A stretch of DNA of 31,530 bases, from the NCBI GenBank assembly GCA_041480885.1, contig JBGPAT010000001.1, positions 1 to 31,530 on the forward strand, read 5' to 3'. This document shows, in pieces, positions 8,801 to 31,530 of the stretch. The translations under genes and the position numbers were made by a program. This stretch comes from Anaerolineae bacterium (GTDB lineage: Bacteria > Chloroflexota > Anaerolineae > Anaerolineales > Villigracilaceae). The notes beneath the pieces were generated by a model. That model was not told the DNA's origin, searched no databases, and saw nothing but the letters and a program-made list of their open reading frames with translations. Numbering within the stretch: the stretch's first letter is position 1; each line of letters opens with the position of its first letter.

Positions 8801-10108
8801 TCAATGACCGTGTGAGCCGCGCCCAATCGCTCTATACGTGAAGCCTTTCTCCTCCATCAAACTCGGATCGTAGATATTGCGGCCATCGAAAATGACGGGC
8901 TTCTTGAGCACAGATTTGAGCCGGTCCAGGTCGAGTTGCTTGAACTCGTTCCACTCCGTCACGACCATCACGGCATCGCAACCCGCGGCCATTTCGTACG
9001 GATCTGTGTACATCTCTACGGCCGGCAACATCGGTCGCGCCACCTCAATTGCCACCGGGTCGTAGCCCCGGACGAGGGCGCCTGCCTTGAGCAGGTGTTC
9101 AACAATATCGATGGATGGAGCCTCGCGCATGTCATCGGTATTCGGTTTGAATGCCAGACCGAACAACCCAACGGTCTTCCCCTTCAACCCGCCGACCATT
9201 TCGTCGATGTGCCGGACAGCCTCAGTGCGACGATCGTAGTTGACAATCGTGGCCGACTCCAGTATGCGCGGAGTCAGGCCGTTTTCCCTGGCCATATACG
9301 CTAGGGCCTTTACGTCCTTGGGAAAGCAGGATCCTCCCCAACCGAGGCCGGCATCCAAAAAATGGCGGCCTATGCGCGCGTCGTAGCCCATGCCAGCCGC
9401 GACCTCTTTTATGTCGGCGCCCACACACTCGCACAGGTCGGCGAGTTCATTCATGAAAGAGATCTTCGTTGCCAGAAATGCGTTGGAAGCGTACTTGATC
9501 ATCTCTGCGGTGCGCAAGTCCGTGATAACGATTGGGGCCCGCAATGGCAGGTGCAATTGGGCCACCTGCTCTGCAGCCTCACGGTGCAGGGAACCGATCA
9601 CCGTGCGATGGGGACTCATGAAATCTCCAATGGCCGAACCTTCGCGCAAGAACTCGGGGCACGAGACAACGGAAAAAGCCACCTCACGCGGCTGGGCGCC
9701 TCTCACGATGTCGGCCACCCAGTCGCCGGTGCCTATCGGTACGGTCGACTTGTTAATGATGACGAGTGGTTGGTTCATGTTGATGGCAATGCTTTTTGCG
9801 GCCGCCGCCACATATTGCAGGTCGGCCTCACCGTTCACACCAGACGGCGTTCCCACCGCAATAAAGGCAAACTGAGCGCCCTTCAAGGCCTCTGCATAGG
9901 AGGTTGTGAATGATAGCCGGCCCGCCTTGACATTGCGCTTCACGAGCTCATCCAGACCCGGCTCGTAGATTGGGAGAATGCCTTTGTTCAAATTCTCAAT
10001 GCGTTTCGCGTCCACATCCAGCGCCACTACTTTATTACCCAAGTCTGCAAAACAAGCGCCGGTCACCAAGCCGACATAGCCCACTCCCACAACGCAGATC
10101 TGTTTCAT
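8801..10108 (-). CDS. ugd: UDP-glucose 6-dehydrogenase
   Basis: GVGYVG Rossmann motif, [15 protein letters not shown], catalytic [21 protein letters not shown]. Confidence 0.95.
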
Positions 10109-14885: not shown

Positions 14886-16385
14886 GTGCAGATTCTGACC
14901 ATCATTAGCATCTATTTCTTCTATGGTTTGGCCTTTTTTAGCATGGGTTTGTTGGTTGCCATGGAAGGCGGCCGCTCATCGGACCAGCGCGTCCGCAAGG
15001 CATTGCGGCCCCTTGCAGGATTCGGTCTCGTGCACGCAACGCACGAGTGGATTGAGATGTTCAGATACATCAGCGTCCTCAGCGGGCAGGAGTTCCCCCC
15101 AGCCTTGCAGGTGCTGAGGCTTTCCACTTTGGCCTTCTCGTTCCTCTCACTCGCCGCCTTCGGCAGTTTCCTGTTGGCAAAGGACGAGATCGCCCAGCGC
15201 GTGAGCCTCATGGCACCGCTGGGCTTGGAGGCCATTTGGGTGTTTGGCCTGCTCAATCTTAAGGGCTCGGTCGCGCCGGCCTCTCTATCCAGCGTCGTGG
15301 ACGTGTGGACGCGCTATTCACTGGCCATTCCGGCGAACATTCTGGCGGCGGTCGGGCTGATTGCGCAGCAGCGGGCTTTTCGCCAGGTAGGTCTCGTCCG
15401 GTTTGGGCAAGACGCCCTGTGGGCTGCCGTCGCATTCCTTTGGTACGGCATTTTTGGGCAGGTGTTCGCCAACGTAAGTGTTCTGCCGCCATCAGATGTC
15501 ATCAATGAGGGCCTCTTCCTTCGCCTGTTCGGCTTCCCCGTGCAGTTGCTGCGCGCAATTTCCGCCGCCGTCGCCTCGTTCTATGTGATCCGCTTCTTGC
15601 ATGCATTTCAGGTGGAAACCGAGCAGAAGATTGCAGACTTGCAGGTCGACCGTCTCAAGGAATCGCAGCAGCGTGAGGCGTTACGAGGAGAATTGTTTCG
15701 ACGCGTGGTGGCGGCGCAGGAAGCCGAACGGCAGCGCATGGCACGCGATCTCCACGACGAGACCGGCCAAGCACTAACGGCCATTGGCCTGGGGCTGCGC
15801 GGCTTGGAGTCACGACTGGCGCAGAGTCCAAAGCAGGCGGCCGCTACGCTGCATGAGCTGCAATCACTCACCGCGGAATCCCTCAAGGAACTTCAGCGGT
15901 TGATGGCTGACCTGCGGCCCTCCCATCTCGACGACCTGGGCTTGTCGGCCGCGCTGCGCTGGTACGCAGGCAAGATGGAGGAACGATATCCGCTCAAGAT
16001 CAAGCTGGATATTTCGGGCCGCGAACAAGTCCTCGACGACGCCGCGAAAATTGCCAGCTTCCGGATCATCCAGGAGGCCCTTAACAACGTGGTGAGGCAT
16101 GCCGAGGCGAAGAGCGCAAGAATCACACTGGAGTTCGCCGACAAGGGCATGCATATGAGCATCAGCGATGACGGAACTGGATTTGACCTGGAACGCGTGC
16201 AGAAGCTGCGAACCTCCGGCAGGCCGTCGCTGGGGCTGGCAGGGATGCAGGAGCGCGCCGCCCTGCTGGGAGGCGCCGTGACGATACAGTCGAAGCCCGG
16301 CCAGGGGACTCTGATCGAGGGGTTTGTCCCGTACCATGCTGAAGTCGAGGAGGAAAATGGCCACACGCCTGCTGCTGGTGGATGA
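14886..16385 (+). CDS. Membrane sensor histidine kinase (HisKA_3, NarX/LiaS class)
   Basis: Multi-TM N-terminus, ERQRMARDLHDETGQ H-box, QEALNNVVRHA N-box, DDGTGFD and GLAGMQERA. Confidence 0.93.
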   Translation: MQILTIISIYFFYGLAFFSMGLLVAMEGGRSSDQRVRKALRPLAGFGLVHATHEWIEMFRYISVLSGQEFPPALQVLRLSTLAFSFLSLAAFGSFLLAKDEIAQRVSLMAPLGLEAIWVFGLLNLKGSVAPASLSSVVDVWTRYSLAIPANILAAVGLIAQQRAFRQVGLVRFGQDALWAAVAFLWYGIFGQVFANVSVLPPSDVINEGLFLRLFGFPVQLLRAISAAVASFYVIRFLHAFQVETEQKIADLQVDRLKESQQREALRGELFRRVVAAQEAERQRMARDLHDETGQALTAIGLGLRGLESRLAQSPKQAAATLHELQSLTAESLKELQRLMADLRPSHLDDLGLSAALRWYAGKMEERYPLKIKLDISGREQVLDDAAKIASFRIIQEALNNVVRHAEAKSARITLEFADKGMHMSISDDGTGFDLERVQKLRTSGRPSLGLAGMQERAALLGGAVTIQSKPGQGTLIEGFVPYHAEVEEENGHTPAAGG

Positions 16386-17960: not shown

Positions 17961-18935
17961 ATGTCTTCTCGTGTCTACCGCCTTTTGATTGCGCTGATGT
18001 TTGCTCTGTTCGCGGCAGGCGCAACGTTACTGCTGGCGCGAGCGCAGGAGGGAACACCCGTCTCCCCCACGCAACCAGCCGCGCACGCGCCCGCCTGCGT
18101 CGCGTGCCACACCGAGTTCGCCACCGAATGGCAGAAAGGCCCGCACGGCCAAGCAGTGAGCGATCCAAAATTCGTCGATGAGTGGACTAAGCAGGGCAAG
18201 CCCGGTGCCTGTCTGGTTTGTCACGTCACAAACTATGATCCGGCAACGGGTACCTGGCTGGAGGATGGGGTCGCCTGCGAGGCGTGCCATGGGCCGCTGA
18301 AGGACGGCCATCCAAAGACCCCAATGCCCGTGGACCGCTCGCCCGAGCTTTGCGGCCGCTGTCACAGCGATGCGCGCTTCGGCTGGCAGGCATGGCAGGC
18401 AAGCGCGCACTTCCAGCGCGGTATGAACTGCACCACTTGTCATGATCCGCACAGTGCATCGCTGAAGGTCGTCGCCCCGCGGGACGGGAGTGCACAATAC
18501 AGCGACGCCTCGCAGTTGTGTGTCAACTGCCATAAAGACGTGAGCATGAACTTCCCTTACTCACAGCACCACCAGCGCGGTGTCTCATGCATAGACTGCC
18601 ACGTAACCCATACCGTGACGACCTCAGCCACGGCGCACACGATTCCGGGTCATTCCTTCAAGGCAAACCTTGATAGTTGCAACAAATGCCACTCTGATCA
18701 AATGCACACTGCCGCTTCGGCGTCATCCGCAAGCCAGCCGCAGACCTCCACGACTTCTGTCCCCGTGCAAATTGAGCAAGCCGGATTGGCAGCCCAGCCC
18801 AGCCCTGTTAGTCCCATCGGCTTCGCGGGTCTGGCTGCCCTAATCGGCCTTGCCGGTGGCATGGTGATGGCCCCTTGGCTTGAGAAGTGGTACGCTCGCC
18901 TGGTGAAGCACAATCGCGGAGGCGGGGATGACTAA
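17961..18935 (+). CDS. Octaheme cytochrome c, signal peptide and C-terminal membrane anchor
   Basis: 8 CXXCH motifs (CVACH, CLVCH, CEACH, CGRCH, CTTCH, CVNCH, CIDCH, CNKCH) and a C-terminal hydrophobic helix. Confidence 0.92.
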   Translation: MSSRVYRLLIALMFALFAAGATLLLARAQEGTPVSPTQPAAHAPACVACHTEFATEWQKGPHGQAVSDPKFVDEWTKQGKPGACLVCHVTNYDPATGTWLEDGVACEACHGPLKDGHPKTPMPVDRSPELCGRCHSDARFGWQAWQASAHFQRGMNCTTCHDPHSASLKVVAPRDGSAQYSDASQLCVNCHKDVSMNFPYSQHHQRGVSCIDCHVTHTVTTSATAHTIPGHSFKANLDSCNKCHSDQMHTAASASSASQPQTSTTSVPVQIEQAGLAAQPSPVSPIGFAGLAALIGLAGGMVMAPWLEKWYARLVKHNRGGGDD

Positions 18936-19698
18936 GACCGTGAGCCGTCGCGATTTTCTTAAGATCAGCGCCGCTGGAGCGACCGCCGCAGCCGCGGCGC
19001 AGGTCCTGAAGCAGGGCGCGGCGTCCGAAACCGCTGCGGAGGGTCCTCGTCAGTGGGTCATGGTCATCGATCAATCAAAGTGCATCGGGTGCGGCTACTG
19101 CACCCTCGCCTGCCAAGCTCACAATGATGTCAATCCCACCATAGAATGGAACCGCGTGACGCCGCTCGGGCAGCTGCAGGGAAAAGATATCTTCTTGCCG
19201 CGGCCCTGCATGCAATGCGCGAAGGCCCCTTGCGTTGATGTCTGCCCGGTCAAGGCATCTTATTACAGACCGGATGGCATCGTGATGATGGACTATGACC
19301 GGTGCATCGGCTGCAGGTATTGCGAAGTGGCCTGCCCGTATCAAGCCCGATCCTTCAACTGGAAAGCCTTCGATGGTCCGAACCCGGTTGTCCCTAAATG
19401 GGGACAACCTGAGGTAGCGCGCCGCCCGCGCGGCGTCGTGGAAAAATGTGCGTTCTGCTACCAGCGCATTGACCGCGGTCTCGCACAAGGTTTGCAGCCG
19501 GGTGTCGACCCGGATGCGACGCCGGCTTGTGTGGTTGCGTGCCCGACCGGTGCCCGCGTTTTCGGGGACATCAATGACCCGCAGTCCGATGTATCAACCA
19601 TGCTGAAGGACAACTTCAACTATCGTCTGCGCGACAATTTGGGCACGGGTGCGCGAGTCTACTACTTGCCTGCCGATGCAGCGGAGATGGAGGGATAA
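18928..19698 (+). CDS. Tat-exported 4x[4Fe-4S] protein (NrfC/DsrO/HybA/QrcC family)
   Basis: SRRDFLK Tat motif; CIGCGYC..C, CMQC..PC..VCP, CIGCRYC..ACP, CAFC..CVVACP. Confidence 0.93.
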   Translation: MTKTVSRRDFLKISAAGATAAAAAQVLKQGAASETAAEGPRQWVMVIDQSKCIGCGYCTLACQAHNDVNPTIEWNRVTPLGQLQGKDIFLPRPCMQCAKAPCVDVCPVKASYYRPDGIVMMDYDRCIGCRYCEVACPYQARSFNWKAFDGPNPVVPKWGQPEVARRPRGVVEKCAFCYQRIDRGLAQGLQPGVDPDATPACVVACPTGARVFGDINDPQSDVSTMLKDNFNYRLRDNLGTGARVYYLPADAAEMEG

Positions 19699-20963
19699 TG
19701 TTGAAGCGCCTGCGAGTCCAACTTCCTCCTCTAAAGGTTACACCGTGGGGCGTGTGGCTGGGGATTCTCGGCCTGGTGCTGTTGGCGGCCTCGACTGCCG
19801 GGGTCCTGGTCTTCTGGACCGGCCTGTGGATCACGAATCTCACCGATCTCGTGCCTTGGGGCCTGTGGATTACGATTGATCTCTCATCCATCGCATTGAG
19901 CGCGGGTGCGTTCACCCTCTGCGCAGCCGTATATTTGATCGGCCTTGAGCGCTACCAGCCCATCGCTCGCACTGCCACGTTTGTCGGCTTGATCGGATAC
20001 ACCATGGCAATGCTGTCGTTGCTGCTCGATATCGGCCGCCCGGATCGCTTTTGGCATGCGCTGGTCTACTGGAATGACCGCTCACTCCTTTGGGAAGTGA
20101 CCATGTGCGTCATGCTCTACCTGACGGTCTTAGTGTTCGAGTCACTCCCCATCTTCGCCGGGCTCGAGTGGTTCAAACAGCGCTTGCCAAAGTTGGCCAG
20201 GAAGATGAGCGGCACGCACCACTATGCGCCCTATCTTGCAATTGCGGGCCTCGCTCTTTCCTCCCTGCACCAGTCTTCGCTGGGAGCAATATACGGCGTG
20301 ATCAAAGCACGTCCCCTGTGGTACAAGCCTGAGATGGCCATCCTGTTCATGTTCTCGGCCATCGTTGGTGGCATTTCGCTGACCCTGTTCGCCTCCATGC
20401 TCTCAGCGCGCCTCACTCCCAAGGCGAAGATCAACGATGCCCTGATTGAGAGGGTGGCACACTTTGTCGCCTGGGCGCTGGTCGGGTACTTCTACTTCAG
20501 GTTTTGGGATGCGCTGGCTCAGCATTACACCTATGAGCCCGGGCGCACCGAGGGAATGGAATTGCTCACTGGAGGTCCGCTCTCGTTCAACTTTTGGGTG
20601 CTTGAAATGCTCCTTGGCACCCTCATTCCCATGATCATGCTTCTGACGCCATATACCCGCCGCCATCCATTCTGGCGCATGGTCGCCCTCGGCCTGGTTG
20701 TGGTGGGCGTGGTTGCCTACCGTTGGGACACGAATCTCTCGGGGCTCATGGTGGTTCTGTCGTATCTTCCGGGCGAGCAAGCGATCGCCTATGCTTCATA
20801 TTGGCCATCACTCGTAGAGCTGGTGGCGGGATCAGGCATCATCGCCTACGGGATGCTTGCCTTCTCGCTCGGCGTCCGTTACCTCAGGGTGGTGGATCAC
20901 CGCTACCTTGCAGACGAAGCTGAGGCCGTCAAGATCGAGTCGCCTGCCGCCGTGCGCGCCTAG
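19698..20963 (+). CDS. NrfD/PsrC-family integral membrane quinone-interacting subunit (HybB/QrcD/DsrP-like)
   Basis: PWGLWI..DL..IALSAGAF, LLLDIGRPDRFW, SLLWEV and LHQSSLG motifs; about 10 TM helices. Confidence 0.92.
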   Translation: MLKRLRVQLPPLKVTPWGVWLGILGLVLLAASTAGVLVFWTGLWITNLTDLVPWGLWITIDLSSIALSAGAFTLCAAVYLIGLERYQPIARTATFVGLIGYTMAMLSLLLDIGRPDRFWHALVYWNDRSLLWEVTMCVMLYLTVLVFESLPIFAGLEWFKQRLPKLARKMSGTHHYAPYLAIAGLALSSLHQSSLGAIYGVIKARPLWYKPEMAILFMFSAIVGGISLTLFASMLSARLTPKAKINDALIERVAHFVAWALVGYFYFRFWDALAQHYTYEPGRTEGMELLTGGPLSFNFWVLEMLLGTLIPMIMLLTPYTRRHPFWRMVALGLVVVGVVAYRWDTNLSGLMVVLSYLPGEQAIAYASYWPSLVELVAGSGIIAYGMLAFSLGVRYLRVVDHRYLADEAEAVKIESPAAVRA

Positions 20964-20977
20964 ATTAGGCCTGCCAG

Positions 20978-21016
20978 AAAAGATGAGCCGGTCCTTACTG
21001 GACCGGCTCATCTTTT
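20978..21016. terminator. Bidirectional intrinsic terminator between convergent cytochrome operons
   Basis: AAAAGATGAGCCGGTCC-TTACT-GGACCGGCTCATCTTTT, with A/T tracts on both sides. Confidence 0.88.
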
Positions 21017-21072
21017 GATTTGAGTACGTCTATGTCGGGTTCAGATCCAATGGATAGCCTGGGCTTGCTACC

Positions 21073-22770
21073 TCACTTCTCGGGCGCGCCAGCCGTTATC
21101 CATTGTCCAACCAGGTCAAGCTCTGCCGCCGAGAGATTCGCAAAGTGCTGAGAACTCTGGATCCTGATCAGTAAACTGTTCGTCGCGTCACCAGGCGCGA
21201 TCACGGCGCGGTCCTTGCCACCTTTCATCGTGCCCGCATAGGTGGTCAGGTCCATGCCCCCGGCGAGCGTGGTGGGATTGTGGCACATGGTGCACTTGGC
21301 GGCGAAAACCGGCCCAATGTTCGCGTCATATGTCGGATTGCCCACCACGGCGGCCGGCGTCGGCAGGGGAGCCGGCGTGGGAACCTGTGCCTGCAGAATG
21401 GACCGCAGAACAGGCGCATCAAATCCCGCATATGTAAAGACACTTCCATGACATGCGCTGTTTGAGCAGAATGACGTGTTGCTGGTTCCGCCAGCATCGG
21501 CCATGGTGTGGCAGGCGGAGCAGGTGGCGTCGATGCTCTTGTTATGCAGGCTGATCCAATTGGCGTTGCGATGAGACTCGGGCTCAGGCCCGCGGCTGAT
21601 TTCGATCTTGGTCACAAAGTCCTGGGAGCCGGCCACCACAGGCACCGAATGACATAGATTGCATTCGAGGCGAATCGCCTGCTGGCTCGCGTCGAGATGC
21701 TTTCCGTCGTGGCAGCGGAAGCAGCCCGCGGAATTGATATGGCCGACATTCGAAGGATGTGTGTTCCAATTGTCCTTCTGGTCCAGGAATGCGGAGTCGG
21801 AATAGATCTGCTGTAGCGCAGCAATGGCCTGCGTGATCTTGGCGGTATTTGCGCCGTAGAAGCCCGAATAGTGAGTCTGATAATAGTTGTCCAAACTCGC
21901 GATACCCGCCTGGGCCTCAGCCTGAGTGCTGTAATCACGCCTCAGCGCTTCGACTCCCAGCTTTCGGATGTCCGGAATATCCTTTGAGATGCCTCCCAGG
22001 GATAGTGCTTCATCCACCGACTCCTCAGGCGTGTAGATGTGGTGCGTAATGCGGTTGTGACAAGTAATGCAGTCCATCTCCTTAAGCTTGGCTGGATCTA
22101 CCTTGGCAGGATCGAAACCAGACTGGACATCCACGTAGTCTGTCTTGGAACCATCATCGTTGACCACCTGCACAAAGGGAATGGTCTGTTCCAGAGTATC
22201 GGTGGGATAGTAGTAGACCTGGTTGACGATGTGCCAGTGGATGCCGAGGCCCAGCCCTGGCCGCTTGGCGCCTCCGCCCGTCTTCAGCACAAGGTAGGTA
22301 CTGTAGGGTGTGTTCTGCTGATCAGGCTGGAAATGGGAGATCACTCGCAGACTGTCGTCTGAGAATTTCTCGGGCGAATGGCATTTCTCGCAGGTCTCAC
22401 GCGCCGGACGCATGTTCTGGATATATATCGGATACTCGTACGTGCTGAAGGCTGTCGCCAGGATGTGCCTCACATCACCAGCCTTGCGGAAGATCTGGTT
22501 ACCAATGAACTCACGTCCAATGTGGCAGTCCACACAAGCTATGCGCGAGTGGGGCGAGACTTGATAGGCTGCAAACTCCGGCGGCATCGTATGGCATGTC
22601 GTGCCGCAGAATGACGGGGAGTTGGTGTAGTCCCACGCATACGCGCCGCCCACCAGAAGTGACAGGGTCAGAAGCCCCAGCACCGCATACGGCAGGATCA
22701 GGAGCCACCGAGGAGAACTGCGAGGCGGAAAGAAGAAGTGGCGGATGGCAGATCGGACTCGTGCTAGCAT
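21073..22770 (-). CDS. NapC/NirT-type membrane multiheme cytochrome c (ImcH-like) with tethered C-terminal monoheme domain
   Basis: N-terminal TM helix, NSPSFCGTTCHTM..Y..SPH..CVDCH, 7 CXXCH plus one CX3CH and one CX4CH, PTPAP linker before the last heme. Confidence 0.88.
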   Translation of the reverse strand: MLARVRSAIRHFFFPPRSSPRWLLILPYAVLGLLTLSLLVGGAYAWDYTNSPSFCGTTCHTMPPEFAAYQVSPHSRIACVDCHIGREFIGNQIFRKAGDVRHILATAFSTYEYPIYIQNMRPARETCEKCHSPEKFSDDSLRVISHFQPDQQNTPYSTYLVLKTGGGAKRPGLGLGIHWHIVNQVYYYPTDTLEQTIPFVQVVNDDGSKTDYVDVQSGFDPAKVDPAKLKEMDCITCHNRITHHIYTPEESVDEALSLGGISKDIPDIRKLGVEALRRDYSTQAEAQAGIASLDNYYQTHYSGFYGANTAKITQAIAALQQIYSDSAFLDQKDNWNTHPSNVGHINSAGCFRCHDGKHLDASQQAIRLECNLCHSVPVVAGSQDFVTKIEISRGPEPESHRNANWISLHNKSIDATCSACHTMADAGGTSNTSFCSNSACHGSVFTYAGFDAPVLRSILQAQVPTPAPLPTPAAVVGNPTYDANIGPVFAAKCTMCHNPTTLAGGMDLTTYAGTMKGGKDRAVIAPGDATNSLLIRIQSSQHFANLSAAELDLVGQWITAGAPEK

Positions 22771-22784
22771 CGATATTCACCTCA

Positions 22785-24914
22785 TTAGTTGTCTTGCGCG
22801 CCGGAAGCAATCCAGTTCAGAATCACCTGGAGATCCGCTTGAGGCAGACTACCCTGGGGTGGCATGGTCTGGCCGTTCGTTCCCTGAAGCATCTGGGCCA
22901 ACGGACTCTTTTCTACGTTCCCGGCAATGACCACGGGGCCGCCCTTTCCGCCGGCCATCACCGTGCTGTAAGAAGAGGCATCCCAGCCACCCAGCTTCGT
23001 GCCGGAGTTGTGGCACACTTGGCAGTTTGCCTTAAGAATCGGGAGCACCTGACCAGAAAAACTTGATGCAGAGGGTGTAGCAGCGGGAGTCGCAGTGCCC
23101 TCCGGCGCGCTCGCGATTGGTTTCAGTGTTCGAATGTACTGCACTAGTTGTTGAAGCTGGCCGGCACTTAGGAGGTCCCCCCACGCAATCATGGGAGTCG
23201 CTTCCCGGCCTTTGTCAATGACATTGAGCAGAGACTGATCGTCATAGCGATTCTGAAAATCCGCCGTGTTGAAGGCGGGACCAATACCACCTTCGCCGTT
23301 GGCGCCATGGCACCTGGCACACACATTTGCAAAAACCTGGGAACCGCTGAGTGCTGCACGACCAGCTGCCACCTCGGCTGGCAGATTGACCGGCGGATTG
23401 GCTTCCCAACTTCGGATAAAGGCCACCAGAGCATCAATCTGGTCATCGCTCAGAGGTCCGCCATTGGCCGAGCCAAAGGGCGACATCCCAAAATTGGGCT
23501 GGCCTTGTGAAATGATACTCCGCAAAGTAAGGTCATCTCGCGTCTTGAGAAACTCAGCCGAACTGATCGGAACGATCGTCTGGCTCGGATTGGCCGGATT
23601 GGGACCGCCTTCGCCAAATTGCCCATGGCAAACCGCGCAATTGCTCACAAATAGCTGAGCACCCTCTTCCGCACTCTGCCCTTTGCTCGCTGTTAGAGTG
23701 TAGTTCACTAGTGCATCCAGCTGCTCGGGCGTCAGTATTTTTCCCCACACCGGCATCGTCACATGGGCGCCGCCGCTCGCGATGATCTTGCGGGCACTCT
23801 CGAGATCAGGAGCGGTTGGCACCGTATTGCCGTGACAGACGCTGCAGCGCTGTCCAAACAGGGTCTTGCCGGCTGGATTGGAGGCGGGATCGGTCACATA
23901 GGCGGCCAGAGTATCGAGGTCAGCCTGGCTCAAGGTACCCTGCCACGCCGGCATTGAAAGGTGCTGTCCGCCTTTGCTGATGATGTCACGCAGCTGACTT
24001 TCGGTGCCGGTGAACGTGACGCCAAACCCGTGGCAACCCGAGCAGTTGACCTCGAACAGCCGCTGACCGTCGGGTGCGGCGAGGAAATTCAGCACCGCAT
24101 TGCGCTGTGCGTCCGTCAGAGTCTGTTTCCAAGCAGGCGTGCTCTGTTTCTGATGCGGGGGGTAATTTGGCCCTTCCTCAAATACCCGTTGCAGCTCCTG
24201 CGGATTCCCAGAGGCCTGTACGAGCGTCTTATGGCACGCTCCACACTCCTGGGTGTAGACCGCACTACCATTTGGTGACGTAATGAAGCCAGCCAGGGCA
24301 TCAATTTCGTCGGTGCTGAGATCGCCTCCCCAAGCAGGCATGCCTTCGTGTTTGCCCTGAGCGATGAGTTGATGGAGATCGGTGCCAGCTGGCACGACAA
24401 TTCCGGGTCCGTGGCAATTGGCGCAGTTCTTGGCGTAGAGGGCAGCGGCTTGATCAACGGGCGCTGCCACTTGAGGCGGCGGCGACTCTCGCACGGAGAG
24501 TATGGTCAATGTGGCGATTCCCCCCACGACCAATAAAGCCAACACGCTCGCAATGGGCCGGTCGAGGAAATGGCGCCTTGTACTTCTATCGATGAACGGC
24601 AGGGCGAACAGCAGGAGAATCAACAATCCAGGAATTACCATGACGCCGACAACTTCCAGCTTGCCGGGGAAGTACTTCAGAAGCTGAAATAGGAAGAGGA
24701 AGTACCATTCCGGGCGAGGAGTGTACGTCGCGTCATTTGGATCTGCCCTTGCCTCCGTCGGGACACCCAGGAAGTACGCCAGTGCCACTAGGACCAGGAA
24801 GATCACCAGCGACACAACCACGTCCTTGAAGATGATGTCGGGAAAGAACGGGACTCCTTTTTCCTTGGCTTTCTTGTAGCGTTCGAGATATTCCTTCTTC
24901 TCTTTCTCGTTCAT
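22785..24914 (-). CDS. Cytochrome b6 subunit IV (PetD/QcrC-like) fused to seven monoheme c domains
   Basis: PFFPD..KD, PEWYFLF Qo motif, 3 TM helices, then CANCH, CGACH, CSGCH, CSVCH, CAVCH, CARCH, CQVCH. Confidence 0.92.
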   Translation of the reverse strand: MNEKEKKEYLERYKKAKEKGVPFFPDIIFKDVVVSLVIFLVLVALAYFLGVPTEARADPNDATYTPRPEWYFLFLFQLLKYFPGKLEVVGVMVIPGLLILLLFALPFIDRSTRRHFLDRPIASVLALLVVGGIATLTILSVRESPPPQVAAPVDQAAALYAKNCANCHGPGIVVPAGTDLHQLIAQGKHEGMPAWGGDLSTDEIDALAGFITSPNGSAVYTQECGACHKTLVQASGNPQELQRVFEEGPNYPPHQKQSTPAWKQTLTDAQRNAVLNFLAAPDGQRLFEVNCSGCHGFGVTFTGTESQLRDIISKGGQHLSMPAWQGTLSQADLDTLAAYVTDPASNPAGKTLFGQRCSVCHGNTVPTAPDLESARKIIASGGAHVTMPVWGKILTPEQLDALVNYTLTASKGQSAEEGAQLFVSNCAVCHGQFGEGGPNPANPSQTIVPISSAEFLKTRDDLTLRSIISQGQPNFGMSPFGSANGGPLSDDQIDALVAFIRSWEANPPVNLPAEVAAGRAALSGSQVFANVCARCHGANGEGGIGPAFNTADFQNRYDDQSLLNVIDKGREATPMIAWGDLLSAGQLQQLVQYIRTLKPIASAPEGTATPAATPSASSFSGQVLPILKANCQVCHNSGTKLGGWDASSYSTVMAGGKGGPVVIAGNVEKSPLAQMLQGTNGQTMPPQGSLPQADLQVILNWIASGAQDN

Positions 24915-25576
24915 CGCTGCTCATTCCTCTCCGGCAGAGCCGAAATGCCAATACGGATCACCAGGTAGAGGTGCGTCCCCACGAGGGCCGCCAGAGCTGC
25001 GGGCAATACCCAAACGTGCGTGCCAAAAAAGCGAGCCAGCGTCACCGCGGACAGATCAGTGCCGCCACGGGCGATCCGCAGGAGCCAATCACCTACCAGC
25101 GGAGCCACGCCAGCAATTCGAGTGCCAACGGTCGTAGCCCAGTACGCTTTCTGATCCCACGGCAGCAAATAGCCGGTAAAACCGAAACCAATCACTACCA
25201 GGAACAGCAGCACGCCCGTGATCCATGTGGCCTCGCGCGGATATTTGTACGCGCCATAAAAAAAGACTCGCAGAAGATGCAGAACCACCAACACGATCAA
25301 TGCGCTCGCACCCCAGTGGTGCAGGCCTCGGATGAGCCAGCCCGCCGGCAGTTGGGTCGTGATGTAGACGACGCTGTCATAGGCATGGTCAGGTGTCGGC
25401 ACGTAGTAAAGTGTGAGCAAGATTCCGGTCACCGCCTGAATGGTGGCGACGAAGAGCGTGGCGCTGCCCAACGTGTATAGCCAGTTTACGTGAGGCACCT
25501 TGCGCAGGAATATGGCCTCCCACACGCTGCGCCAGCTAAAGCGCTCTTCCATCCAATCGGCGAATTTTGCCAGCAT
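24911..25576 (-). CDS. qcrB: Cytochrome b6 (N-terminal, 4-TM) subunit of Rieske/cyt b complex
   Basis: QAVTGILL.LYYVP, His pairs H-x13-H and H-x14-H, GFTGYLLPWDQKAYWA. Confidence 0.94.
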   Translation of the reverse strand: MLAKFADWMEERFSWRSVWEAIFLRKVPHVNWLYTLGSATLFVATIQAVTGILLTLYYVPTPDHAYDSVVYITTQLPAGWLIRGLHHWGASALIVLVVLHLLRVFFYGAYKYPREATWITGVLLFLVVIGFGFTGYLLPWDQKAYWATTVGTRIAGVAPLVGDWLLRIARGGTDLSAVTLARFFGTHVWVLPAALAALVGTHLYLVIRIGISALPERNEQR

Positions 25577-25577
25577 A

Positions 25578-26057
25578 TCAACCTCGCTTTATGTAGAGAA
25601 TCCCGGCCGTCACTTTGCTCTGGAACCGGTCAAGAGGTCGAGGCGGTGGCCCAGATACGACGGTCCCATCCTTCGCAAACACGCCGTTATGACAAGGACA
25701 ATGGTACTTGCCATCGTCGGCGATCCAGCGCACTCTGCATCCCAGGTGGGTGCAAATGTTCGAAATGACCACAAAATCCTGTCCGTTGTCAGTCAAGACG
25801 TAAGCCGACACTTCCTCTTCGGTCTTGATCCAGCCCGTCTGTGTCTGAACCGTGGTCTTGAAAAGCGTGGGATTCCCCATCTCAACCTTGCTGATTGCTC
25901 CCAGCCGGATCCATGCATCAGTAGCCTGCGTCAGGGCCGGGCCGATAACGTATGCAATCGCTGGCAGCCCGATCGCGGCGCCGATGAGCCCGCCGATGCT
26001 GAAGATCGCCGCTTTCATGAAGTCCCGACGGCCAAGCGGCGGCGTTTTGTCTTTCAT
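25578..26057 (-). CDS. qcrA: Rieske [2Fe-2S] protein, Tat signal-anchor
   Basis: GRRDFMK, CTHLGC and CPCHNG boxes, GPPPRPL. GGAGG RBS precedes ATG 26057. Confidence 0.94.
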   Translation of the reverse strand: MKDKTPPLGRRDFMKAAIFSIGGLIGAAIGLPAIAYVIGPALTQATDAWIRLGAISKVEMGNPTLFKTTVQTQTGWIKTEEEVSAYVLTDNGQDFVVISNICTHLGCRVRWIADDGKYHCPCHNGVFAKDGTVVSGPPPRPLDRFQSKVTAGILYIKRG

Positions 26058-26082
26058 GGTTGACCTCCAGTGTTCAGTACCT

Positions 26083-27300
26083 TCACTTTTCGAGAGCTCC
26101 CGCATCGATCCAGGCTTTGACCAGCGCAAGCTCTTCAGGGGACAACTGGCCGGGATGACCGCCGCTGGTCTGGACCTGGAATAGTTTGCTGTTAGCCGCA
26201 TCACTTGGGACAATGACGGGGCCATCCGTTGCGCCTTTCAGGGCGTCTGCATAGCTGCTCAGGTTCAGCCCGTTGGTTGCTAGAGTTGTGCCATGACACA
26301 TCCCGCACCTCGACGCGAAGATCGGAGCCACCTCTCCCCAAGAGATGGGCGAGCTGGTTCCGGCCGCAGCCTGCGCCGTGGGCACCGACGTCGCAGCAGG
26401 TACCGCCGTCGGCGTCGGCGGCAGCGCAGTGGGTGTCTGCGGAACATAGATGGGAACAGTCGTGGCAATCTCCGGCGGGACTGTTGTGATGGCGGTCTGC
26501 TCGCCGTTCACGAATCCATAGACGGCAAAGAGCAGGACCAGCGCGACTATGGCCGCAATTGGGTAATAGACATGCTGGCGTTTTCGAAGCGCGGCCGGCT
26601 CTGGCAGGCGGTCCGCAAAGCCCGCTTTGATGTCTGCCAGCTCCAGCGGATGCTCATGGAGCATTTCTTCTTCGCTCGCGCGGCCTGTCCACATGGCCTT
26701 GTTGAATCGCCTGAGATGAACCCCATACATGTGCCAGACGATGATGGCCAGGACGGCCAAAACTGCTTCCGCGCCATGGGCCGTCTTGGCGGCCGGGATG
26801 ATGTCGCCTGGCAGGAGCCGGACAGTGGTAAGAGGGTTCCACATCATGAATCCCGTTAGACCCATGATCAGGATGCCCCAAACCAGGGCCCAGTATTCCG
26901 CCTTCTCTTCGAAACCATAACGTCCCAGCTGTGGACGGGATTTGACGAGACCGATGTTGTATCTGAAGGCGGACCACGCATCAAGGACGTCCTGCACGCC
27001 TGGCAACATCGCCAGCGGCCGGCGCAGGACAAAGATCTTGTATCCAAGATTCACGATGTGATAGACGGCCACCAGCATGAGCAGGATAGCCGCGACATGA
27101 TGGGTGGTCCGGACGCGCTCAATCCCACCAAAGGAACGAACCATGAATACCGAAACGGAACTCAGCGCGTATTTCTGCACCAGACCGGTAAGCGCCAGGG
27201 TTGTGAAGGACAGCAGCATCACGAGATGCTGAATGCGATCTGACAGAGTGAATCGAACGTAGTTCCGCCGCGGCGCGGGAGCAGCCGTCTTCTTTGCCAT
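26083..27300 (-). CDS. FdnI/HydC-type diheme cytochrome b with tethered C-terminal monoheme c domain
   Basis: RF..SDRIQH, RTTHH, GRYGFEEKAEYWAL.WG, AHG.EA..A...WH; PTPT linker, then CGMCH. Confidence 0.9.
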   Translation of the reverse strand: MAKKTAAPAPRRNYVRFTLSDRIQHLVMLLSFTTLALTGLVQKYALSSVSVFMVRSFGGIERVRTTHHVAAILLMLVAVYHIVNLGYKIFVLRRPLAMLPGVQDVLDAWSAFRYNIGLVKSRPQLGRYGFEEKAEYWALVWGILIMGLTGFMMWNPLTTVRLLPGDIIPAAKTAHGAEAVLAVLAIIVWHMYGVHLRRFNKAMWTGRASEEEMLHEHPLELADIKAGFADRLPEPAALRKRQHVYYPIAAIVALVLLFAVYGFVNGEQTAITTVPPEIATTVPIYVPQTPTALPPTPTAVPAATSVPTAQAAAGTSSPISWGEVAPIFASRCGMCHGTTLATNGLNLSSYADALKGATDGPVIVPSDAANSKLFQVQTSGGHPGQLSPEELALVKAWIDAGALEK

Positions 27301-28463
27301 TAGTGCTGCGCTCCCTTCCGCGCCTGGATCATGCGTCTGATAATGTCGGATACAACGAAGATCAGCATGCCGCCGATGACAGTCGGGATGAAGATCTTGT
27401 AGAACAGGCCAACGTAGTACACCAGCGGAGACCTCGTGGGGCTAGCGATGTAGTGGCTCATCCATGCGTCGGTGAAGCTCGTGGTGGTCACGTCGGGATG
27501 GCAGCGTTGGCATTTCGTCAGCAGATTCTGCTTGATGGCGATGCCAGTGGCAGGATTATCCACCTTGGAAATGTTGTGGACACCATGACAATCGGTACAC
27601 ACCGGCTTGTTAGTCGGCGTGTCCGGCGAGACCTGCTCAAAAAGCGTGACCGTGGTGCCGTGGAAGTCGGCCACGTAGGTGTTGAGGACCTGCGTTGTGA
27701 TGCCATACTTGCCCATGATCTGCGGATTGGTATGGCACTTTGCGCACAACAGAGGTGTGTCATTACGGAAGCGAGCCGTGGTCGGGTTCTGGATATTATG
27801 AACGCCGTGGCAGTCAATGCAGGTCGGCACATCCAGGTTGCCCTCGGTGGTGAGCGCCGCGCCATGGACGCTGTTCTTGTAGGTATTGTAGATCGTGCTG
27901 TGACAGCGCGCACACGTGAGTGGAATTTGCAGGCGCGCCTGGGGCAGGAGCTCCCCAGTCTGTTTATCGGTCATGCGGATCTGTTGGTGCGGGTTATGAC
28001 AATCGGTGCAGACCGCGGCGTTGTTGTTCCCGCCTGCCAGCGCCGTCTGGTGAACGCTGTCCAACACCTTGCTGTACTGTTCCGCATGGCAGTTCTTGCA
28101 GCTGGTGTAGAGCTGAAGCGTCACCTGTCGAAGGGAATCAGCTTTGAAATCGGTGTGCGGAAACGTAGTGATGTTCGTATGGCAGTCGGCACACGCGATG
28201 TTCTCCTGATCGTGCACGCTGTGGCCGAATAGACCAGGATCAATATACAGTGAGAGTATTTCGCCGCTGGGAAGGGTTTTCGTCAGGCCCTGCTGACTAT
28301 GACAACCCAGGCAAAAGTCATTGGAAGGTTTGTCCTGAACGCGTGTTGCGAACCCCCCCACGGCGCTTGCGGGCGTCGCGATGACGATCGCGGCAAGCAG
28401 AAGCAAGCCCAACGCCGAGACAAGCAAGACTGCTCTTAGTCGGTTGTTCGGCCGTGCGGTCAT
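27300..28463 (-). CDS. Nonaheme cytochrome c with signal peptide and C-terminal TM helix
   Basis: 9 CXXCH motifs. The stop overlaps the start of the cytochrome b gene (TAATG). AGGAG RBS. Confidence 0.92.
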   Translation of the reverse strand: MTARPNNRLRAVLLVSALGLLLLAAIVIATPASAVGGFATRVQDKPSNDFCLGCHSQQGLTKTLPSGEILSLYIDPGLFGHSVHDQENIACADCHTNITTFPHTDFKADSLRQVTLQLYTSCKNCHAEQYSKVLDSVHQTALAGGNNNAAVCTDCHNPHQQIRMTDKQTGELLPQARLQIPLTCARCHSTIYNTYKNSVHGAALTTEGNLDVPTCIDCHGVHNIQNPTTARFRNDTPLLCAKCHTNPQIMGKYGITTQVLNTYVADFHGTTVTLFEQVSPDTPTNKPVCTDCHGVHNISKVDNPATGIAIKQNLLTKCQRCHPDVTTTSFTDAWMSHYIASPTRSPLVYYVGLFYKIFIPTVIGGMLIFVVSDIIRRMIQARKGAQH

Positions 28464-28609
28464 TGCCTTCTCCTGCGGATGACGGGCATGTCTTGAATAG
28501 GACGCAAAATGCGGGCAGTGGTTGATGGCACGTTGCCTACAAGTCTAATCTGCATGTTAGGGCACAAATAGTGCGGAATATCACGAAATTGATATGATTA
28601 GTCTTCAGA

Positions 28610-28656
28610 GAATGAATGAGATGGCGGGCGCGTTGCGCCCGCCATCTCATACATTC
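28610..28656. terminator. Long GC-rich hairpin downstream of decaheme gene (terminator or mRNA-stabilising stem)
   Basis: ATGAGATGGCGGGCGC-GTT-GCGCCCGCCATCTCAT, extendable by GAATG/CATTC across one mismatch. No clean U-tract. Confidence 0.65.
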
Positions 28657-28672
28657 CCCGATCTAGGTTCGT

Positions 28673-30901
28673 CTATGGCCTCTTGAGCTTCGAAACATCC
28701 CCGCCGAGATCCTTGATCGAGTCATACAGGAACTGCATGACATATTGCGGATTGTGGGCAAAGGCGCCTGGGTCCTTGATGGAGTACTGGTAGTTATAGG
28801 CCGCCTCCAGCAGGCGAGGCGTCCAGGCGTTGTAGCCGATGTTGCCCGTGTCATTCGTATCTGGCTTGCCATCCTTGTTAGCATCCACAAAGAAGTACGG
28901 ATAGGTCGCGGCGTCGTACACAATTGCCGTGCCTGCCTTCTTCTCTGCATAGGCTTGGACAGCTGCATACAGCGCCGTGCGATAGCTGTCGATCTCTGCA
29001 TAGATGCCTTCGGTGACGTCGCCGTTGCCGTTCCAGTCCGTGGTATCGGTGGTCGCACGGATCTTATCCAGGTCAGCGGTGCCGGTGACATTGGTGTGGC
29101 AAGCCTTGCAGGCATCAACTTTCACCGTAAGCTGATGGACATCATGGCAGTCCGTGCACTTGTTAAGCGGATGCACCGTGTTCTGGCCGAGATACTTCTG
29201 ATTGGCGTATTGATAGGCACCCTTTGCCGCATCCCCAAACAGTGTCGCACCGGCGGCAAAGTAGTGGACGTTCTTGAAGCTGATCTTCGGATCAGCCGTG
29301 TCGAGGGGCTTGCCAGCCAGATAGTTATTCACGGTGACTGTGGACTCGCGGCCCTGGTGGCACTCGATGCACAGGTTCGCATCCACGGGCTTGAGCGTGC
29401 CGTCCGCGTTCTTCTCGGTGCTGAAAGTCAGCGAAACGCCTGAGGGGAACGGGACGCTCGTGACCGCATAGCGATTCGGCCAGTTGGCTTCGTCATGGCA
29501 GGTCGAGCACATGAAACCATTGGCAGCGGGCTGCCCAACCACCCCGGTGATCTGAACCCCGGACTTGGTCACGACCTCGGTGCCGCTATTCGCAATATAC
29601 TGCGGCAGACCGGTGGCGCTGTGGCACTTGGCGCATGCTGCATCAACGGTGCCAGTGGAATCCCAGTGGCGGAACGGTTCAGTGTCGCCCGCGAAGTGAC
29701 CCGCATCGTCCCGAGCCAGCTTGCTCATATCGACCGGCTTGGAAATCTTGCCGTTGAGGTCATCAATAGAGTCGTGGAGCAACTCAATGATGTACTTCGC
29801 GTTGTGAGCGAATGCGCCCGGATCCTTGGCAGACACCTGATAGTTGTAGGCAGCCTTCAGCAGACGCGCGGTCCACTTGCCGTAGGGGACAGGATTACCC
29901 TTGGCATCCTTGGCCACGGTCCCGTCGCTGGCTGCAGAAAGGAAGTAGGGATAGGTCGCCCCATCATAGACGACGGGTGCGCCCCCAACTTCAGTGGCAT
30001 ACGCCTGAATGGACGAATACAGGATATCCTGCAGGCCCTTCAGCTCGTAGTAGATGCCTTCCTTGGTGTCGCCATTGCCGTTGTAATCCGCAAGCGAACC
30101 GTTTTCGCGGTTGTTTTTCAGATCATCAACGGTTTTGACGCCCTGGTGGCACTGCGCGCACTGGTCCACGCGCACCTTGGTGGCGTGCTGGTCATGGCAG
30201 GCGATGCAGGTATCGAACTCCGGTACATGCCGGAACTTGGGATCGTAGGACTTGCCATCGTACTCATACCCCATTTGAGCCTGCGATCCGTACAGAGTCG
30301 CACCGGCCGCAAAGTAGTGGACATTGCGGAAGCCGAAGTTCACGGGCTTGCCGCTGGAATCCGTCATCGGCGCCACCACGGCATCGACGTCAGTGACCTT
30401 GAAGTCGCTGATCTGCTTGTCAACACTGACCTTGGACTCACGCCCCTGATGACAGCTCATGCAGCGCGCCTCACCTTCCTCGGAAGTCTGCACGACTTTT
30501 CCCGAGGGGAAGGTGACCGAGTTCAAAGCGATTGCGGCCGGGTTGTGGCAGGTGTCGCAGTTGAAGGTGCCGGCGGGAGCTTTCACGTCCGTGCTGGTCT
30601 TCCCGGTCGAGGCAAATTCCTGAAAGCCAGCCGAGGTATGGCATTTGGCGCAAGTCGCCGGAACTACGGCAGGCGTATCGCCATTCCAATGCGTGAAAGG
30701 CACAGCATTGGCATCCGCATGGCCGGAAGCCAGGAAGGCGTCCTTGAACGGGACGACGAGCGTCAGCGCGGGGGCCGCGGTGGTGGGGGCCGTCGTGGTG
30801 CCGCTGGTCGCCGGCGTAGCAGCGGTTCCCCCGCAGGCTGCCAGCGCGACAGCAGCTACGAGCATCACTCCTAGAAGAACGAGTACTTTCCTAAGGGACA
30901 T
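28673..30901 (-). CDS. Decaheme cytochrome c lipoprotein built from two tandem pentaheme modules
   Basis: Lipobox LAA-C after a hydrophobic signal (AAGGAG RBS precedes ATG 30901), 10 CXXCH motifs, duplicated NVHYFAAGATL and AAYNY..DPGAFAHN motifs. Confidence 0.92.
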   Translation of the reverse strand: MSLRKVLVLLGVMLVAAVALAACGGTAATPATSGTTTAPTTAAPALTLVVPFKDAFLASGHADANAVPFTHWNGDTPAVVPATCAKCHTSAGFQEFASTGKTSTDVKAPAGTFNCDTCHNPAAIALNSVTFPSGKVVQTSEEGEARCMSCHQGRESKVSVDKQISDFKVTDVDAVVAPMTDSSGKPVNFGFRNVHYFAAGATLYGSQAQMGYEYDGKSYDPKFRHVPEFDTCIACHDQHATKVRVDQCAQCHQGVKTVDDLKNNRENGSLADYNGNGDTKEGIYYELKGLQDILYSSIQAYATEVGGAPVVYDGATYPYFLSAASDGTVAKDAKGNPVPYGKWTARLLKAAYNYQVSAKDPGAFAHNAKYIIELLHDSIDDLNGKISKPVDMSKLARDDAGHFAGDTEPFRHWDSTGTVDAACAKCHSATGLPQYIANSGTEVVTKSGVQITGVVGQPAANGFMCSTCHDEANWPNRYAVTSVPFPSGVSLTFSTEKNADGTLKPVDANLCIECHQGRESTVTVNNYLAGKPLDTADPKISFKNVHYFAAGATLFGDAAKGAYQYANQKYLGQNTVHPLNKCTDCHDVHQLTVKVDACKACHTNVTGTADLDKIRATTDTTDWNGNGDVTEGIYAEIDSYRTALYAAVQAYAEKKAGTAIVYDAATYPYFFVDANKDGKPDTNDTGNIGYNAWTPRLLEAAYNYQYSIKDPGAFAHNPQYVMQFLYDSIKDLGGDVSKLKRP

Positions 30902-31018
30902 AGTTGCATTCTCCTTTCGGGCCGTTCGATGAAGATGGTTGTGCTGCATAAAGGCGACGATAGACGAACCTCTAAGGTCGACGCACAATACGCGCCTTTT
31001 TTGGGCCATATCTAGCCC

Positions 31019-31047
31019 ATTCTACATAAATGTATGATTAATCACAA
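31019..31047 (-). promoter_or_regulatory. Candidate sigma70 promoter for the decaheme operon
   Basis: On the - strand, TTGTGA-N17-TAGAAT (plus-strand coordinates 31042-31047 and 31019-31024). Confidence 0.5.
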
Positions 31048-31069
31048 GTTAGGTTGGGGTGAAAAACAC

Positions 31070-31165
31070 GTGACAAATGTCACATGTCTCAACCCGTTGG
31101 GGCATTTTCGGGCAGAAATTGGCGAGATTCGGCTATTTCTTTGAGGTGCAAGATGACTAAAGTCA
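31070..31165. promoter_or_regulatory. Two TGAC-N4-GTCA palindromes, candidate operators in divergent promoter region
   Basis: GTGACAAATGTCAC (31070-31083) and TGACTAAAGTCA (31154-31165). Confidence 0.45.
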
Positions 31166-31239
31166 CCCCATGCCGGTGACTAGGCTCATGGCAGGAATGC
31201 TGAACGATTGGGATAAAATACACAAGAAGGGGCCTGCAG

Positions 31240-31530
31240 GTGAGCGAATCTCTGTTTCTCGTGTACTTCCTTTACGGCCTGTCGTTCTTTGCCATGGGAT
31301 TGGCTGTTCTGCTGGAGACAGCCCGCTCTCCTTCCATCGCGGCTGTCCCGAGCCTGCGATTCCTCGCCGCCTTTGGCCTGATCCACGGTACCCACGAGTG
31401 GCTTGAGTCCTATGTGATGCAGGCGCAGTCCTTGGGAACCCAAATACCATTTTGGCTGCCGGGCTTGCGGCTGGTGTTCCTGTTCGTCTCCTTTGTGAGT
31501 CTATTCCTATATGGGTACTCTGCCGTGCGG
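31240..31530 (+). CDS. N-terminal membrane sensor domain paralogous to the 14886 kinase (3'-truncated, not in ORF track)
   Basis: GTG start, MSESLFLVYFLYGLSFFAMGLAVLLETARS..LRFLAAFGLIHGTHEWLE; aligns with YFFYGLAFFSMGLLVAMEGGRS..LRPLAGFGLVHATHEWIE. Confidence 0.85.
   Translation, partial: MSESLFLVYFLYGLSFFAMGLAVLLETARSPSIAAVPSLRFLAAFGLIHGTHEWLESYVMQAQSLGTQIPFWLPGLRLVFLFVSFVSLFLYGYSAVR

Follow-up and report, generated by a model that had tools for sequence, protein, structure and literature searches.

A Rieske/cytochrome b complex of Anaerolineae with a seven-haem arm on subunit IV, encoded as an optional cassette in a multihaem cytochrome island

We analysed a 31,530-nucleotide stretch of DNA (hereafter the window; positions 1 to 31,530 of contig JBGPAT010000001.1, assembly GCA_041480885.1) from a 2.97-Mb metagenome-assembled genome (MAG; 84.5% complete) of an uncultured Anaerolineae bacterium from sediment. 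We found that three adjacent genes on its minus strand encode, in this order, a Rieske [2Fe-2S] subunit (25578..26057), a cytochrome b6-type subunit (24911..25576) and a subunit IV extended by a seven-haem arm, the last being an uninterrupted open reading frame (ORF; 22785-24914) whose product, P0001, has 709 amino acids (aa). The Rieske and b6 genes are 1 nt apart, and between the b6 and subunit IV genes there is a 4-nt overlap. The Rieske subunit (PF00355, E = 4.8e-11) carries an RRDF twin-arginine translocation (Tat) motif before its membrane helix and the boxes CTHLGC and CPCHNGVF; its homologues have 160 aa, and a start at Met57 of the long ORF (26057) fits this length, giving a product of 159 aa. 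The cytochrome b6-type subunit (P0002, 221 aa) is a four-helix protein whose helices B and D contain His pairs; it matches PF00033 over 180 residues (E = 4.3e-50), while the NCBIfam cytochrome b6 model scores it at 240 bits, below its cut-off of 325. P0002 has YTLGS where b6f and Bacillus proteins have YCxGG (motif per PMC4122944), and the haem ci cysteine is missing. Residues 1-145 of P0001 (24480..24914) form the subunit IV module, with three helices at 24-50, 86-108 and 120-142 in an AlphaFold2 model, a Cytochrom_B_C match (PF00032, residues 60-147, E = 3e-11) and a PEWY motif at residue 68 that is invariant across homologues. As a separate observation, Rieske box II has neither the Ser nor the Tyr that mark high-potential Rieske proteins, although PEWY serves as the Qo motif. 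The Rieske, b6 and subunit IV genes are not accompanied by a separate gene for cytochrome c1 or f. In b6-type complexes the C-terminus of subunit IV is on the outer membrane face, and the entire haem tail is thus extracytoplasmic, like Bacillus QcrC. All parts needed for a Q cycle are present, with the haem arm on the outer face, and the predicted function of the complex is most likely that of a quinol:cytochrome c oxidoreductase working by a Q cycle.

The tail of P0001 contains seven CxxCH motifs, each in its own domain, and Pfam Cytochrome_CBB3 matches seven stretches of the protein (E = 2.8e-69). The series opens with D1, a short class-I c domain and the most conserved of all (24276..24467, like all the following on the minus strand; CxxCH at residue 164, Met192), followed by D2, a divergent short class-I-like domain (24075..24275; CxxCH 224) that has no Met and carries His254. 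D3 (23877..24074; CxxCH 291, Met321) and D4 (23673..23876; CxxCH 357, Met387) are again short class-I domains, whereas D5 is a longer, c6/c551-like one (23400..23672; CxxCH 426, Met477). Beyond a variable Pro-rich linker (23355-23399) lies D6, a c6-like class-I domain that is missing from six-haem forms (23121..23354; CxxCH 532, Met575), and beyond a hypervariable Pro/Ala/Thr linker (23064-23120) lies D7 (22788..23063; CxxCH 631), with Met684 in an MPP motif. D1, D3 and D4 measure ~65 aa and D5 and D6 80-90 aa; D7 is an end domain of the PSCyt1 type, matching PF07635 over the full model length (residues 631-688, 30 bits against a cut-off of 22), which was confirmed on the DNA. In an alignment of 120 seven-haem homologues every CxxCH is invariant, as are Met192, His254, Met321, Met387, Met477, Met575 and Met684. 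Since D2 has no Met and an invariant His254 in place, its haem is probably bis-His. The share of invariant positions is 53% in D1, 37% in the membrane module, 13-16% in D6 and D7 and 0-13% in the linkers. The initial annotation of this DNA had described a PEWY-containing subunit IV fused to seven class-I-like monohaem domains in place of cytochrome c1 or f. The fusion and its place in the Rieske/b6 operon are borne out by the open ORF, the Pfam matches and the conservation in homologues, and the seven motifs do lie in seven domains, but the class-I description does not extend fully to D7, which is of the PSCyt1 type, or to D2, which is without a Met ligand.

We also observe that the tail divides into two parts in AlphaFold2 models, which were made of protein only, without haems. 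Modelled alone, D1-D5 reached a mean predicted local distance difference test score of 82.8 and a predicted template-modelling (pTM) score of 0.63, against a pTM of 0.43 for the full protein, in which the Pro/Ala/Thr-rich linkers (~506-520 and 599-617) are the low-confidence stretches. On these models the tail looks more like five abutting domains without linkers (D1-D5) followed by two tethered ones (D6 and D7) than like a uniform rigid wire; the initial annotation had allowed for a long wire leading away from the membrane. Foldseek searches with the full model and the D1-D5 model against the PDB, a wide structure set and the AFDB clusters matched single class-I domains only, such as those of Kuenenia c-type cytochromes, actinobacterial QcrC and cytochrome c6, with no solved multi-domain counterpart among the matches listed, and the matches of a PDB sequence search were limited to cytochrome b, subunit IV, CcoP and c6-type proteins. 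Upon comparing the domains by profile-profile scores, the best pairs were D5-D6 (110), D3-D4 (103) and D1-D3 (85), followed by D2-D3 (68) and D2-D4 (62). The earlier suggestion that D1-2 and D3-4 are a tandem duplicated pair is thus not the best description of these relationships.

Relatives of this protein are numerous. In a search restricted to the subunit IV part, 4093 clusters of proteins of at least 389 aa matched among the 8000 best candidates scored, and when each species was represented by a single genome, relatives turned up in at least 564 of the genomes scanned. The best 80 of these were kept for all locus counts given below; nearly all are MAGs of Anaerolineales, Anaerolineae or Chloroflexota. 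Seven CxxCH motifs are present in 78 of these 80. The variants are a form of ~625 aa with six haems, lacking D6, one of ~820 aa with eight haems and one of 1056 aa with ten. Wider subunit IV diversity, surveyed in 150 representatives of 50%-identity clusters, is dominated by proteins with zero, one or two haems (43, 43 and 40, respectively), with five or more in 9 of the 150. Seven haems are unusually many relative to characterised complexes, with one in Bacillus and two in dihaem forms, as the initial annotation had put it, but they are the commonest form within a large Anaerolineae family. The database names of the homologues are just "c-type cytochrome" or "mono/diheme cytochrome c family protein".

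Repeated domains may mislead assemblers, and the initial annotation had raised the possibility of a misassembled repeat. An apparent five-haem relative of 450 aa, at locus L006, is in fact a six-haem gene broken by frameshifts, and five-haem forms are not established. In this long-read MAG the subunit IV arm is frameshifted (L006:5969-6442 and 9277-9908), and b561 and PSCyt1 are called separately, probably for the same reason; short "variants" in protein databases need checking on the DNA. For the gene in the window, a collapsed or expanded repeat, or a pseudogene, is refuted as an explanation, and we give it practically no weight. The ORF contains no long DNA repeats and its domains share at most ~50% protein identity, 148 homologues from independent assemblies have the first five CxxCH motifs at identical positions, at least five separate sediment metagenome runs contain near-identical DNA, and the seven-motif count recurs across the species genomes as stated above.

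The operon lies within an island of multihaem cytochrome genes. Its most constant neighbour, present at 66 of the 80 loci, encodes an NrfH/NapC-like membrane multihaem cytochrome that ends in a PSCyt1 domain (21073..22770, minus strand). On the other side, also on the minus strand, follow an FdnI/b561-type dihaem cytochrome b fused to a PSCyt1 domain (26083..27300; 50 of 80 loci), a membrane-anchored nonahaem cytochrome c (27300..28463; 48 of 80) and a decahaem lipoprotein-like protein (28673..31009; 27 of 80). The N-terminal hydrophobic stretch of the latter ends in ...LAAC, its real start is probably internal, and its ten CxxCH motifs were counted in a 75%-identical homologue from congener G408. 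On the plus strand, an octahaem cytochrome, a Tat 4Fe-4S protein and an NrfD-like membrane protein (17961..20963) form a second quinone-linked module of the island. Across the 80 loci, cytochrome b6 accompanies subunit IV at 78 and the Rieske gene at 76, NrfD at 35, and members of the NrfD/FeS/octahaem triad at 25-35. An unbiased clustering of all ORFs in these loci, in which families present in at least 9 of the 80 counted as shared, also recovered a HisKA_3 kinase (50 of 80), a LuxR-type regulator (47 of 80) and ccmE (22 of 80), and ccmF was found too. In the window, the HisKA_3 sensor kinase and LuxR-type regulator genes lie at 14886-16385 and are a candidate dedicated regulator of the island. 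No NAD(P) oxidoreductase flavoprotein was found in the window operon or among the shared families. A promoter and terminator scan of 20900-31300 gave counts not above those of shuffled sequence, the sole promoter-like site being upstream of the decahaem gene. The position of the three genes varies across lineages, either after or before the NrfH-like gene. In a Bellilinea sp. MAG (L075:5446-7743) the NrfH-like and b561 genes that normally flank them are lacking, and they are preceded by two different multihaem cytochrome genes (437 and 216 aa) and by a two-component system of the same type.

When comparing congeners, we observe that the three genes are present or absent together. Congener G405 has the same island in the same place, with a subunit IV arm that is 80% identical over residues 1-505. 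Congener G408 has the decahaem, nonahaem, b561-PSCyt1 and NrfH-like genes and the NrfD triad, and lacks Rieske, b6 and subunit IV: its b561 and NrfH-like genes are 60 bp apart, with exactly the three genes missing. Congener G411 has no island at the syntenic site, where the flanking Zn-ribbon gene abuts ccmE/ccmF, and the near-complete congeners G280 and G410 gave no match to the arm at E 1e-40. The three genes are an accessory, optional cassette. Mis-binning of the contig was considered and rejected, with the G405 island in the same place and PanB on the same contig 78-80% identical to that of eight congeners, from which it follows that the contig belongs to the genus. Of 60 genomes sampled from the family, 6 have the cassette, 38 the b561-PSCyt1 gene, including all six carriers, and 50 COX1; in a class-wide sample of 400 other genomes, the cassette occurs in 8. 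These are plain counts over genomes that are related and partly incomplete.

The same organisms possess a separate, housekeeping complex. Five congeners were searched at a permissive threshold, and each of them has a second subunit IV, 471-489 aa in length. The G411 protein, dihaem and 481 aa long, consists of one class-I and one PSCyt1 domain, has its own Rieske and b6 genes and adjoins sdhCAB. The source genome carries this housekeeping dihaem operon on contig C416, where the contig end truncates it. Identity of the cassette b6 to the housekeeping b6 is 55%, against 69-88% to the cassette b6 of other species, which indicates that the two are old paralogues. A further locus of the source genome (contig C35:1-2700) contains a cytochrome b frame, for which one in-frame TAG was reported, along with an octahaem cytochrome of 416 aa and a Tat-Rieske protein of 157 aa, so that this MAG holds three different Rieske/b gene sets. 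On contig C6 (16280-18724) the same genome has an 815-aa open frame of the COX1 family with a long N-terminal extension and no CxxCH, which could be a quinol-dependent nitric oxide reductase rather than an oxygen reductase. PSCyt1-type end domains close four quinol-linked proteins of the lineage, namely subunit IV in its seven-haem and its housekeeping dihaem form, the b561 and the NrfH-like protein (window 21073-22770, 22788-23063 and 26083-26350; L095:8680-9063). Both subunit IV forms keep the MPP Met in this domain and the b561 and NrfH-like proteins have His there; the PF07635 matches in the source genome are solely the three copies in the window.

We compared the complex to known systems. 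It shares with Bacillus/Geobacillus QcrABC (b6c) the split of b6 and subunit IV, an outer-face c domain that extends subunit IV at its C-terminus, the gene order Rieske, b6, subunit IV-c and a Rieske box II without the high-potential Ser and Tyr (PMC4122944). Bacillus QcrC, however, has one class-I haem domain in contrast to the seven c haems seen here, and it is Bacillus b6c that has the haem ci cysteine (YCxGG against YTLGS), while the present operon is accessory and lies in a multihaem island. Actinobacterial QcrC of the CIII2CIV2 supercomplex (PDB 6HWH, 7RH5, 7Q21) likewise takes Rieske electrons through tandem class-I domains without a soluble carrier, and D5 superposes on one of its domains (Z 10.9, root-mean-square deviation 1.8 Å, 81 residues). 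That QcrC is a dihaem subunit in its own right with a fixed connection to an aa3 oxidase, whereas no oxidase linkage is seen here, and the NCBIfam QcrC model NF050122 scores P0001 at 97.3 bits, below its cut-off of 200. In Kuenenia stuttgartiensis, the b6-type Rieske/b complexes Kustd1480-1485 and Kuste4569-4574 have hexa- and octahaem proteins replacing cytochrome f (PMC12954380). The use of many c haems in its place and the presence of several Rieske/b complexes per organism are common to both cases, but the Kuenenia multihaem subunits are separate, subunit IV has five helices and there is an NAD(P) oxidoreductase subunit (PMC12954380), as opposed to a chain of class-I monohaem domains on a three-helix subunit IV with no flavoprotein among the conserved neighbours. 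Kao and Hunte (2014, PMC4122944) described PEWY-cyt c as well as PDWY-cyt c clades and an Ignavibacterium fusion of cytochrome b with a trihaem c7. These share with our case the fusion of c domains to the C-terminus of cytochrome b or subunit IV and the multiple cytochrome b copies, but they carry one class-I domain or one c7 trihaem, and neither a seven-domain chain nor Anaerolineae are mentioned there. Ardenticatena ARMA_0580, a surface seven-haem protein, was considered as an instance of the same fusion and rejected; it has 430 aa and one helix and is not a subunit IV fusion. The Geobacter modules ImcH, CbcL and CbcBA are potential-specific inner-membrane quinol oxidases, and they resemble the island, as read below, in that alternative quinol-oxidising modules feed one extracytoplasmic cytochrome network; the island neighbours are similar to the NapC/NrfH and b561-plus-nonahaem types of Geobacter. 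To our knowledge, none of the Geobacter inner-membrane quinol oxidase modules is a Rieske/b complex. The NCBIfam models of the b6-like ExtP and subunit IV-like ExtQ of Geobacter fall below their cut-offs (217.6 against 290 and 22.9 against 150, respectively), and this pair is Rieske-less, in contrast to the operon examined here, in which a Rieske gene is present. A full-text literature search found no description of a heptahaem subunit IV. The core is that of a Bacillus-type b6c complex, with a chain of seven monohaem domains on subunit IV for which we found no characterisation. The present analysis adds the domain anatomy (a probable bis-His D2, five abutting domains and two tethered ends), together with the within-genus series of presence and absence, the parallel housekeeping complex and the lack of oxidase linkage at the 80 loci.

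Considering these observations together, we regard it as probable, with moderate confidence, that the seven-haem tail serves an accessory quinol oxidoreductase of the Rieske/cytochrome b6 type as its c-type arm and feeds the extracytoplasmic multihaem cytochromes of the island rather than a dedicated oxidase. The conserved neighbourhood, the nesting of the cassette in the island, the separate housekeeping complex and the carriers without a COX1 match argue for this reading. The path that we infer for the electrons, with its direction and quinone type, is as follows. Quinol, presumably menaquinol, would be oxidised at the Qo site, which cytochrome b6 forms together with subunit IV and its PEWY loop; one electron would return via the two b haems to the quinone pool in a proton-motive Q cycle, and the other would pass through the Rieske cluster into the chain of haems that, on the outer face, continues from the third subunit IV helix. 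The electron would probably enter at D1, beside the Rieske head, as this domain begins ~20 residues past the third helix and is the most conserved one. Electrons would then run along D2-D5 and on to the tethered D6 and D7, which on their flexible linkers are probable shuttles that pass electrons to partner cytochromes. A bis-His haem within a His/Met chain would be no obstacle; in the Blastochloris reaction centre, haems of high and low potential alternate along the tetrahaem subunit. Being optional, the cassette would on this view provide the network with a third entry point for quinol, one that conserves energy, in addition to the b561/nonahaem and NrfH-like modules.

Several findings weigh against this reading, and some of them favour a second complex III that feeds an aerobic caa3 oxidase or a general outer-face pool of cytochromes and reductases. 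In that case the five extra haems would act as an electron buffer or extend the reach across the wall zone, and the multihaem neighbours would be functionally independent. The source genome does encode a caa3-like oxidase whose subunit II has a c domain with CxxCH (contig C115), and COX1 is present in four of the six carriers of the family sample. The class-I plus PSCyt1 end of the housekeeping dihaem subunit IV aligns with D6-D7 (29% identity over 213 aa), and a module shared with the housekeeping complex is therefore not island-specific and could dock to an oxidase. The retention of the rest of the island in G408 also suggests that the island genes work without the cassette. Against an oxidase partner, there was no match to CoxA within 9 kb at any of the 80 loci, and no catalytic oxidase or reductase family was found among their conserved neighbours. 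Two carriers of the family sample that are at least 96% complete have no COX1 match, all carriers in that sample also have the b561-PSCyt1 island marker, and in the congeners examined there is already another Rieske/b6 complex, whose subunit IV is short and, in G411, dihaem and adjoining sdh. We consider the oxidase-feeding alternative unlikely, although serious enough to be kept in view. The initial annotation had allowed that the architecture might be common and already characterised with a conventional oxidase partner: common it is, but no characterisation was found and no oxidase pairing was seen at the 80 loci.

A flow in the inward direction can be envisaged as well, with an outside donor such as Fe(II), a cathode or a partner cell delivering electrons to D7, from where proton-motive force would drive them uphill via Rieske and b into the quinone pool. 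A comparable uphill mode has been proposed for the petI bc1 complex of Acidithiobacillus ferrooxidans. The hardware would be the same as for the outward route, mixed His/Met and probable bis-His ligation fixes no direction, and the Chloroflexota isolate Ardenticatena maritima exchanges electrons both anodically and cathodically (PMC5808234), in work that did not concern the present protein. The two other quinol-type modules of the island, however, are of kinds usually read as quinol oxidases, and no data point to uptake, markers of carbon fixation and iron oxidation not having been searched for; we judge inward flow improbable. The remaining points that count against the proposed feeding of the island cytochromes concern the protein arrangement, its expression and the quinone. 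For a homologue with 54% identity, superposition of its AFDB model on ours gave a TM-score of only 0.30, such that the interdomain arrangements disagree; no RNA datasets were listed with the subunit IV gene; and MqnA/D was not found in the 84%-complete MAG, in which the classical men pathway was not searched for.

Anaerolineae are widely suspected of extracellular electron transfer on account of their many multihaem cytochromes (PMC7399161; bioRxiv 10.1101/2021.08.23.457424), and the seven-haem subunit IV is not described in either of these studies. As a tentative extension of the island-feeding reading, which we hold to be possible rather than probable, the cassette may encode a proton-motive Q-cycle complex dedicated to extracellular acceptors, an optional "high-yield gear" that single-membrane Anaerolineae would add to a cytochrome network already served by two simpler quinol oxidases, with an arm of five abutting domains and two tethered shuttles that would reach into or across the wall zone. 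Energy conservation at the cytoplasmic membrane of mineral- and electrode-respiring bacteria is still poorly understood, and the known inner-membrane quinol oxidases of these pathways are not Rieske/b complexes; were the extracellular-acceptor reading true, a Rieske/cytochrome b complex would take part directly in extracellular electron transfer. The natural relatives with and without the cassette are a testable system for growth yield and for the range of acceptor potentials. Overall, the known range of c-type arms of complex III is widened, and a Q-cycle complex with a seven-haem arm within a cytochrome island is found in hundreds of Anaerolineae species, organisms that are abundant in sediments, soils and sludge.

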